From positions 26,151 through 90,150 of the forward strand of contig JBBILH010000003.1 of NCBI GenBank assembly GCA_037445005.1: a stretch of DNA of 64,000 nt, given 5' to 3'. The stretch comes from Nitrospira sp. Lineage in GTDB: Bacteria; Nitrospirota; Nitrospiria; Nitrospirales; Nitrospiraceae. The number at the start of each line of letters is the position of its first letter. The first letter of the stretch is position 1. The notes beneath the pieces were generated by a model. The model was not told the DNA's origin, did no database searches, and saw only the letters and a list, made by a program, of their open reading frames with translations. This document shows positions 45,759-47,267 of this stretch, piece by piece. The position numbers and the translations under genes were made by a program.

Positions 45759-47267
45759 ATGGCAGCGATGACGACCGGTCTTTCCCCCGCCGCCGGCCAT
45801 TCGATATCCCCTCTCCCTCAGTTGGTGCCTAGCGGTACCTGTCTGAACTGCGATGTCTGTTGCCGGTTTCCCGATCCCGACAGTCCGCTTCGGCCGTATT
45901 TCTCCGCCCAAGAAATTGTCGAAGTGGTCCGATCAGGGAAGTCGGGCGAACGCTGGTTTCCGTCGTTAACCGGCTGTCAGGTGACACTCATCCCTGACAA
46001 GCGAGGGGAAGGCTATATTTGTCCCGCCTTCGACGAAGCCACGGCCCGCTGCCGGATCTATGAACAACGTCCGCTAGATTGCCTGCTGTACCCGCTCGCT
46101 CTCATGTGGGATGAAAACCATGATCAGGTGGTGCTGGGCTGGGACAGTAAGTGCCCGTTCCTGCAAGATCAGGCGCCGCAAACTATTCGGACCTTTGCAG
46201 ACATGATGCTCGCCAAACTGAAAGACCCGGACCTTCAACGTTCGATCTGCGAGCATCCGCGCCTGATCGGCCGGTTTCAGCCCGATGTAAAGGCGCTCAA
46301 CACGCTTCCTGAACTGGCCGATGCGCTGCGCGCCAAATGGGGGGCGGTTCCTGTCCATCGATTGGTGCTGGACGACCTGCCGCGCTTGCAGGCGGCGCTG
46401 ATTCGGGCGGGGCTTCAAGAAAGCCGCCCGCTGGCGGCTTATTCAGCCGCGTACCACTACATGGGCAACGCGTTCATGACCTATTGGTGGGCCGAAATTC
46501 AGGGAGCATTCTGTCTTTTCATTGAGTCACCGGACGGCTGGTTCATGCCCCTTCCACCTTTGACGGACGGTTCGATTGACGGGCCGCTCGCCGAGGCGTT
46601 TCGACTGATGCGGAGCTGGAACGGTACTTCACCGGTGACGCGAGTGGAGAACGTGTCCGCGGCGGCGGCCTCCAGGGCGAGAGCTCACGGGTATCGAGTC
46701 ACCCCGAAAGAGTCGGATTATCTGTATCGAGCCTCCGAACTCGCCGCACTGACCGGGGATCGGTACAAGTCGCAACGGGCGCTCTGCAACAAAGTCGAGC
46801 GAATGGGGGAGGCGGTCGTTGAGCCGTATCGCTTGCGTGACCGGCCGGGTTGCCGGGCGCTGCTGTCCGACTGGCAGAGGCAGAAGCGCGAGGGGGGGCT
46901 CGATCCGTTCGGGCGCCTGCTCCTAGAGGATGCGCCCTCGGCGCATGAGGTGATATGGACTCATGCCGACGAGCTCTGCCTCTCCGGTCTCGTCGTCCGG
47001 TTCGCGGGTCGAATCCGGGCGTACACCTTCGGGTTTTGGCTGGACAAGGCGACATGGGCGGTGTTGGTGGAAATCGCCGACCGGACCGTGCCCGGGCTCG
47101 CGCAATACTTGTTCCGTGAAACCTGCCGCCGCGCTGTGAACCAAGGGGCGGAATTCATCAACACCATGGATGATGCCGGGCTTAAAGGGTTGCGATCGTC
47201 CAAGCAGGCATATCGTCCCATCGACACCATTGAGAACTACGTTGTCTCGGAGCCCTCGTCACGATGA
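45759..47267 (+). CDS. YkgJ (CxxCxxCC) domain fused to a DUF2156/LPG-synthase-C-like GNAT domain
   Basis: CLNCDVCC...CPAF...CRIYEQRPLDCLLYP; DYLYRASELAALTGDRYKSQR, FINTMDDAGLKGLRSSKQAYRP; alternative start at 45732. Confidence 0.78.
   Translation: MAAMTTGLSPAAGHSISPLPQLVPSGTCLNCDVCCRFPDPDSPLRPYFSAQEIVEVVRSGKSGERWFPSLTGCQVTLIPDKRGEGYICPAFDEATARCRIYEQRPLDCLLYPLALMWDENHDQVVLGWDSKCPFLQDQAPQTIRTFADMMLAKLKDPDLQRSICEHPRLIGRFQPDVKALNTLPELADALRAKWGAVPVHRLVLDDLPRLQAALIRAGLQESRPLAAYSAAYHYMGNAFMTYWWAEIQGAFCLFIESPDGWFMPLPPLTDGSIDGPLAEAFRLMRSWNGTSPVTRVENVSAAAASRARAHGYRVTPKESDYLYRASELAALTGDRYKSQRALCNKVERMGEAVVEPYRLRDRPGCRALLSDWQRQKREGGLDPFGRLLLEDAPSAHEVIWTHADELCLSGLVVRFAGRIRAYTFGFWLDKATWAVLVEIADRTVPGLAQYLFRETCRRAVNQGAEFINTMDDAGLKGLRSSKQAYRPIDTIENYVVSEPSSR

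Follow-up and report, generated by a model that had tools for sequence, protein, structure and literature searches.

The stretch of Nitrospira sp. DNA analysed here (the window; 64,000 nucleotides of contig JBBILH010000003.1, positions 26,151 to 90,150) contains, at 45759..47267 on the plus strand, a gene in which a cysteine-rich CxxCxxCC domain is joined to a tandem-GNAT domain of the DUF2156 family. The pairing of these two parts is ancient, and is conserved either as a fusion, as in the gene described here (P0002), or as two adjacent genes. The best reading of the fusion protein, to which we would assign a probability of roughly 0.4, is that of a metal-cluster-gated acyl-coenzyme A (acyl-CoA) transferase acting on a protein amine. 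A full-text literature search found no report on the pairing of an eight-cysteine (Cys8) domain with DUF2156, and no member has been characterised; the existing automatic database labels read 'DUF2156 domain-containing' and 'Fe-S-cluster containing protein'.

Architecture of the fusion gene and its product

According to the list of open reading frames (ORFs) and the translation, the open frame spans 45732-47267 (+). A database gene call of identical sequence begins at the ATG at 45759, 7 nt 5′ of which an AAGGA resembling a ribosome-binding site can be read (45747..45751, +). From this start the gene, whose coordinates include the stop codon, encodes a soluble product of 502 amino acids (aa). 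The initial annotation of the gene had proposed a two-domain protein lacking a membrane flippase, and both parts of this proposal are borne out. Pfam recognises the two domains above their respective cut-offs, CxxCxxCC (PF03692) with 31.9 bits against 23, and LPG_synthase_C/DUF2156 (PF09924) with 91.3 bits against 27.5, the latter at residues 238-505 of P0001 and over positions 12-297 of the 298 in the profile. Besides these two families, Pfam searches at E-values up to 1 gave nothing on the fusion protein, and no NCBIfam family of any kind matches it at an E-value of 1 or better. The N-terminus consists of the soluble Cys8 module, and no transmembrane (TM) segment was detected in the protein, the highest Kyte-Doolittle value over a 19-residue window being 1.05. 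The AlphaFold2 (AF2) model of the whole chain has a mean predicted local distance difference test (pLDDT) score of 91.7 and a predicted template modelling (pTM) score of 0.85, values that would be compatible with a fixed packing of the two modules. The gene is the only one in the source genome to carry PF09924.

Fused and split forms

Among a sample of 200 Nitrospirota genomes, the full-length fusion is present in 28/28 genomes of the family to which the source belongs, and a scan of contigs recovered it in at least 80 loci from Nitrospira metagenome-assembled genomes, at 48-62% identity and with Nitrospira as the only genus among the matches listed. The fusion is thus real and not an assembly artefact. 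In other families of the phylum (genus g8 of family f2, and families f3, f12 and f13), the two halves are encoded by separate neighbouring genes on the same strand, which overlap or lie a few bases apart. An exhaustive, profile-free search of 1.8 billion cluster representatives returned 2591 relatives. Of the best 150, about 80 are full-length fused proteins, with identities down to 25%, and the rest correspond to the N-terminal part alone (150-270 aa) or to the C-terminal part alone (~300 aa). The named members of the distant fused clusters belong to Candidatus Omnitrophota. In a distant clade represented by 44 analysed metagenome loci (within L115-L192), the split form predominates, being found in 34 of them. 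A search for longer fusion partners (synthetase, tRNA-binding or kinase domains) gave one weak and irrelevant match, and proteins of 540-560 aa carry the same two domains only. Across these lineages the two parts have thus stayed together while fusing or separating more than once, a pattern regarded as the classic sign of joint function.

The GNAT module and its place within DUF2156

The C-terminal module, residues 196-502 (46344..47264, +), is a tandem GNAT. When family profiles were searched against the Protein Data Bank (PDB), the sole related match was 2HQY, the structure of BT_3689 from Bacteroides thetaiotaomicron (E-values of 8e-48 and 4e-40), and no MprF chain was retrieved even at an E-value of 10. 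Comparison of the model with 2HQY by VIA gave a Z of 33.4 and a root-mean-square deviation of 2.3 A over 290 (of 296) residues, covering positions 196-499 of the model, and Foldseek gave an E-value of 3e-20 with a TM-score of 0.82-0.85. The next tier in VIA is made up of aminoacyl-tRNA transferases, namely MprF (Z of 18.6-20.6), FemX/FemA (15.8-18.2) and Sbb17/Sba18 (17.0-17.2), and the third tier of tandem GNATs that use CoA, mycothiol synthase and glucosamine N-acetyltransferase among them, with Z of 13-15. Since 2HQY is the sole related match of the profiles and its Z is far above all others, the module is to be placed in the free-standing BT_3689 branch of DUF2156, and not in the MprF branch. 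The tandem-GNAT assignment of the initial annotation consequently stands, by fold and by PF09924, whereas its further assignment to the MprF/FemABX kind does not hold by sequence, as the profiles reach 2HQY only; there is no FemAB Pfam match in the fusion protein, and the likeness to FemABX is at the level of the fold (Z of 15.8-18.2).

Aminoacyl-phosphatidylglycerol synthases of the MprF type (4V34, 4V36 and 7DUW) share PF09924, the tandem-GNAT fold and a basic helix with the fusion protein (Z of 18.6-20.6), which differs from them by having neither flippase nor transmembrane segment, by its additional Cys8 module and by the lack of any match at the sequence level. A lipid acceptor is unlikely, given that the fusion protein has no membrane part and that its genome contains no other PF09924 gene. 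BT_3689 (2HQY) and its Helicobacter pylori homolog HPB8_1270 belong to the same DUF2156 subgroup as the C-terminal module, and have in common with it the basic helix between the two GNAT folds and a C-terminal K-x-S-Y-x-P motif, but they are free-standing proteins of about 300 aa, whereas the GNAT module here comes with an eight-Cys domain, either in one chain or as a separate partner. It has been stated in a study of H. pylori RNase J that acetyl-CoA occupies the active site of 2HQY, and that deletion of HPB8_1270 partly lowers the acetylation of four RNase J lysines (PMC10700544). It is for BT_3689 and HPB8_1270 that acetyl-CoA binding and acetylase activity have been reported (PMC10700544). 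Since 2HQY is reported with acetyl-CoA, dependence on tRNA is one of two live options for the fusion family and cannot be taken as given.

The conservation pattern was examined in an alignment of 48 fused proteins (alignment A1). Near-invariant positions of the GNAT module are P266, P267, R295, G333, R340, N344, W372, Y422 and G425, together with E438 and G446 around strand beta4 and the loop that follows it, M470, and K482 and P487 in the K-x-S-Y-x-P motif. All of them are present in the window protein, which removes the concern, raised at the outset, that the GNAT domain might lack transferase residues. The basic helix that separates GNAT I from GNAT II (residues 334-349, helical in DSSP; 46758..46805, +) has the family consensus YKSKRxxxN, in which R340 and N344 are conserved at 90% or more, and the surrounding stretch 330-352 holds 5 K/R against 3 D/E. 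In the beta4-alpha3 loop of GNAT II, the near-invariant G446 tends to have a basic residue just before it and a small residue at the second position after it; judged from these residues, the loop appears to resemble the pyrophosphate loop of CoA-using GNATs.

The eight-cysteine module

The N-terminal module, residues 1-195 (45759..46343, +), comprises the CxxCxxCC core (PF03692) followed by a helical extension of approximately 60 residues (140-195). The first set of four cysteines, C28-x2-C31-x2-C34-C35 (45840..45863, +; confirmed by a residue check), provides candidate ligands for a [4Fe-4S] cluster or for zinc, and the second set is formed by C88, C98, C108 and C132 (46020..46154, +). All eight are invariant across the 48 fused homologs of alignment A1, at identities down to 25%, and the second set is invariant in alignment A3 as well. 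Modelled alone, the module folds with a pLDDT of 89, and other lineages carry it as a stand-alone gene of 150-200 aa. No solved structural relative of the module was found by Foldseek (best E-value 0.87) or by a wide VIA search (best Z 3.4), a lack of match that does not prove a new fold. Compared with free-standing CxxCxxCC proteins of the YkgJ/UPF0153 type (PF03692), with which it has in common a Pfam score exceeding the cut-off as well as the eight-Cys signature, the module adds the helical extension and is always fused to, or adjoins, a DUF2156 GNAT.

Two characterised enzymes provide precedents for such a module. In the flagellin lysine N-methylase FliB, a CX4CX3CC motif binds an O2-sensitive [4Fe-4S] cluster and is catalytic; the enzyme has eight conserved cysteines, and its authors likened the motif to PF03692 (PMC8598068). 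FliB resembles the fusion protein in its eight conserved cysteines and in having, at the N-terminus, a Cys-rich motif with CC as its last two residues, whereas the spacing differs (CX2CX2CC here), FliB uses S-adenosylmethionine and has no GNAT domain, and no NCBIfam model matches the fusion protein. The comparison is an analogy. In the arginyl-tRNA-protein transferase ATE1, N-terminal CxxC and CC motifs bind an O2-sensitive [4Fe-4S] cluster and are joined to a GNAT-fold aminoacyl-tRNA transferase, whose activity is tuned by the cluster (PMC9884297). Here the analogy is one of design, that is, of an N-terminal Cys-rich domain joined to a GNAT-fold transferase: the fusion protein has no ATE_N or ATE_C Pfam match, its cysteine pattern is the eight-Cys CxxCxxCC one, and the fold search with the N-terminal domain gave no clear match. 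Taken together with the FliB precedent (PMC8598068), the invariant cysteines suggest that the CxxCxxCC domain would bind zinc or an iron-sulfur cluster. A two-step modification carried out by the fusion protein, as had been proposed from the joining of the two domains, is conceivable since the Cys motif of FliB is catalytic, and thus possible by analogy; a metal site with a regulatory or structural role, of the kind seen in ATE1, is at least as likely.

Coupling to a hybrid sensor kinase

The fusion gene ends in a TGA at 47265-47267, and the ATG of the next gene is at 47264, giving an ATGA overlap (47264..47267, +). This next gene (47264..50764, +), co-translated with the first, encodes a hybrid sensor kinase of 1166 aa, in which Pfam and the transmembrane segments give the order TM, dCache, TM, PAS, PAS, GAF, HisKA, HATPase and REC, the two transmembrane segments (approximately 17-40 and 299-323) flanking the dCache domain. 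The kinase gene is found directly downstream of the fusion gene in 62/79 Nitrospira loci, with an estimated 4-nt overlap in 50 of the 62; the coupling noted at the outset is thus real, and it is conserved in Nitrospiraceae.

A second, differently arranged tie to a Cache sensor is seen in family f12 (L024:7472-9262 (+), also L025 and L026), where the gene for a dCache-HAMP-GAF membrane sensor lies directly upstream of the split pair and in the same orientation; the sensor has no kinase, cyclase or other output domain. In family f13 (L029:7364-9097 (+), also L030 and L033), the gene that overlaps the start of the CxxCxxCC gene encodes an HflX-type GTPase with an unassigned N-terminal extension of about 225 aa, and M16 peptidase genes are located 3′ of the pair. 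The gene following the kinase in the plus-strand cluster of the window encodes a CbbQ/NorQ AAA+ ATPase (AAA_5 and CbbQ_C; 50881-51699, +), and in genus g8 a CbbQ/NorQ gene lies directly 3′ of the split GNAT gene. A minus-strand ORF of 492 aa without any family assignment (50623-52101) was rejected as a gene, being the antisense shadow of the CbbQ/NorQ gene.

Proposed mechanism, and the nature of donor and acceptor

The analysis shows the architecture of the fusion protein, its conservation, its fused and split forms, its placement in a subgroup and its operon coupling; which donor and acceptor it uses, what metal it carries and how it is gated are inferred from these, as follows. The catalytic module (approximately residues 196-502) would take an acyl group from acyl-CoA, with acetyl-CoA as the default, in the cleft of GNAT II, and would transfer it to an amine bound in GNAT I; this amine would most likely belong to a soluble protein, as a lysine or as the N-terminus, and not to a membrane lipid. 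The N-terminal module (approximately residues 20-195), as an obligate partner, would most likely carry, through its eight invariant cysteines, a [4Fe-4S] cluster bound by the CxxCxxCC set as well as a further metal site of the Cys4 type, and would either gate the transferase according to O2, nitric oxide (NO) or redox state, or form part of the acceptor site. In Nitrospiraceae, where the enzyme is made together with a periplasm-sensing dCache hybrid kinase, this co-translation suggests that its target or its regulator probably belongs to the signalling pathway of that kinase.

An acyl-CoA donor is suggested by the ligand reported for 2HQY, by the in vivo acetylation phenotype of the homolog and by the glycine loop retained after beta4 of GNAT II. 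A protein acceptor is favoured because lysines are the targets of FliB and HPB8_1270, and protein N-termini those of ATE1, all three being characterised relatives or analogues of the two modules, and because the gene or gene pair is coupled to sensor proteins.

Several observations nevertheless weigh against this mechanism. The DUF2156 enzymes with proven activity, MprF, ErdS and ErgS, all use aminoacyl-tRNA, and VlmA is counted among the GNAT-fold aminoacyl-tRNA transferases (PMC6103681, PMC7334510, PMC8913301). In the structural comparison, once 2HQY is set aside, aminoacyl-tRNA transferases (MprF, FemX and Sbb17/Sba18; Z of 16-20.6) rank above the CoA-using tandem GNATs (Z of 13-15). The basic helix between the GNAT folds, which reviews and the ErdS papers describe as binding the acceptor stem of tRNA in all aminoacyl-tRNA transferases (PMC6103681, PMC7334510), is conserved in the fusion family, and in 33/44 loci of the distant clade a tRNA_bind gene (PF01588) directly precedes the pair. 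The evidence on HPB8_1270 is genetic and partial (PMC10700544), and the link to a kinase is absent outside Nitrospiraceae.

The tRNA-related points among these would fit the main rival reading, which we regard as somewhat less probable, that of an aminoacyl-tRNA-dependent transferase of the ATE1 kind. GNAT II and the basic helix would then bind the acceptor end of a charged tRNA, the acceptor would be soluble (a protein or a small molecule), and the Cys8 module would sense redox state and tune the activity. The domain design of ATE1, with its [4Fe-4S] domain joined to a GNAT-fold aminoacyl-tRNA transferase (PMC9884297), speaks for such an enzyme, as do the neighbours of the pair in the distant clade, where an RNase_T-WYL gene lies directly downstream in 31/44 loci and the core is kept while the outer flanks vary, and where a pair of tRNA genes is found upstream in 15/41 loci. 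However, the closest solved relative has been reported with acetyl-CoA and the homolog behaves as an acetylase in vivo (PMC10700544), and no aminoacyl-tRNA synthetase paralog or fusion was found. Neither a stand-alone tRNA_bind gene nor an RNase_T-WYL homolog was found in the source genome, and neither occurs near the pair in the Nitrospirota loci examined. In addition, PF01588 also takes in CsaA-type chaperones, and a neighbour of this family need not signify tRNA.

The recurring core of the distant clade has the order tRNA_bind (PF01588, ~106 aa), Cys domain, GNAT, and RNase_T+WYL exonuclease. The first of these genes encodes a Trbp111/CsaA-like protein and the last a DEDDh exonuclease of the RNase_T family with a C-terminal WYL domain (e.g. 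L137:7681-8001 and L163:9346-10167). The loci form 27 clusters at 70% identity and only 4 at 50%, and hence represent few independent lineages. The core is often followed by genes for a chorismate-binding protein and a class IV aminotransferase (PabB/PabC-like). The tRNA genes mentioned above are a tRNA-Val(TAC) and tRNA-Asp(GTC) pair, located 0.1-6 kb from the core (in loci including L115, L123, L125, L128, L144, L146, L149, L163-L165, L171, L186, L188 and L192); the genes between the pair and the core differ among loci, and both tRNA genes are on the strand of the core in most of them, with tRNA-Asp on the opposite strand in L171 and L186. Their presence may reflect inherited synteny or a functional link. 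A 723-aa 'tRNA_bind' ORF in L192 was considered as a synthetase and rejected, as it appears to be an ORF called too long, whose N-terminal part is PGI-like.

The RNA-related neighbours could also be accommodated by an acyl-CoA-dependent enzyme that modifies a tRNA-linked substrate, either by N-acetylating the amino acid of a charged tRNA or by acylating an RNA-processing protein, with the Trbp111-like protein presenting the RNA; we consider this unlikely. GNAT toxins do N-acetylate the amino acid on charged tRNA. A mechanism of this type would join the report of acetyl-CoA in 2HQY with the tRNA_bind and RNase_T-WYL neighbours and the basic helix, and the sole in vivo target reported for a homolog, RNase J, is a ribonuclease (PMC10700544). 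On the other hand, the RNA-related neighbours are missing from the source genome and from the Nitrospirota loci examined, and blanket acetylation of charged tRNA would be toxic, yet no antitoxin-like partner was seen. We also know of no tandem-GNAT DUF2156 enzyme that acylates a tRNA-linked substrate. The rest of the probability falls to some other mechanism.

It is also conceivable, albeit improbable in our estimation, that we are dealing with a new signalling enzyme, in which a [4Fe-4S] module sensing O2, NO or redox state would gate, or contribute chemically to the reaction of, a tandem-GNAT protein modifier (an acyl-CoA acylase or a bacterial ATE1-like aminoacyl-tRNA transferase). In nitrite oxidisers this enzyme would serve as the output or working partner of membrane sensors of the Cache type, while in Omnitrophota it would belong to a module linked to tRNA and RNase.

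The aminomutase neighbourhood

A divergently oriented group of genes lies upstream of the fusion gene in the window. It includes a gene for a radical SAM (S-adenosylmethionine) aminomutase of the KamA family (41479-42669, −), situated about 3 kb upstream, an 81-aa glutaredoxin/GST_N-like ORF (42685-42930, −), the gene for a glutathione-synthetase-like ligase of 506 aa (42984-44504, −), and a dCTP deaminase gene, the glutaredoxin-like ORF lying between the KamA gene and that of the 506-aa protein. The 506-aa protein has no Pfam or NCBIfam match, and is called ligase-like on the basis of language-model features that resemble those of glutathione synthetase or GSP synthase, which constitutes a lead only; it is found at 42-71% identity across 7/26 families sampled in the phylum. 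Between the ligase-like gene and the fusion gene lies a GGDEF diguanylate cyclase gene (44580-45602, −), which is present in only 16/70 Nitrospira loci and is therefore a lineage-specific insertion. Genes for GGDEF, PilZ and REC-GGDEF proteins are likewise recurrent neighbours of the pair in the distant clade.

That the fusion gene lies near an aminomutase operon, as the initial annotation had it, is correct as to location, whereas a functional link between the two did not hold up, the association amounting to synteny at the level of the order. One could imagine that the fusion protein is a tailoring enzyme of the adjoining beta-amino-acid pathway (KamA, glutaredoxin-like protein and ligase), acylating or aminoacylating the pathway product. 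The ligase-like gene is indeed the divergent upstream neighbour in 67/70 Nitrospira loci, and the arrangement is kept in both families of the order. There is also a precedent in methanogens, where AblB, the partner of the aminomutase AblA, is a GNAT acetyltransferase. However, the genes are divergently transcribed, and the ligase gene occurs without the fusion in 10/10 genomes of genus g7 and 7/7 genomes of family f8, with no PF09924 found in five complete g7 genomes. Families f3, f12 and f13 have the ligase gene as well as the pair, but on different contigs or far apart, and in families f6 and f10 the GNAT gene is present and the ligase absent. On account of this phyletic pattern the link to the aminomutase pathway was rejected, and we regard a tailoring role as very improbable indeed.

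Significance of the fusion family

DUF2156 enzymes have become known for the tRNA-dependent aminoacylation of lipids, which drives resistance to antimicrobial peptides. The fusion family represents a soluble tandem-GNAT branch of DUF2156 with an obligate eight-Cys partner, and is widespread in nitrite-oxidising Nitrospira and in Omnitrophota. Which of the two donors it uses, acetyl-CoA or charged tRNA, would decide if tRNA chemistry has been abandoned throughout the BT_3689 branch, to which the Helicobacter and Bacteroides proteins also belong. If it is true that the Cys domain carries an O2-sensitive cluster, the family would be a bacterial counterpart of the logic of ATE1 and FliB, in which an iron-sulfur cluster controls protein modification, and in key nitrifiers such modification would be wired to a sensor kinase.

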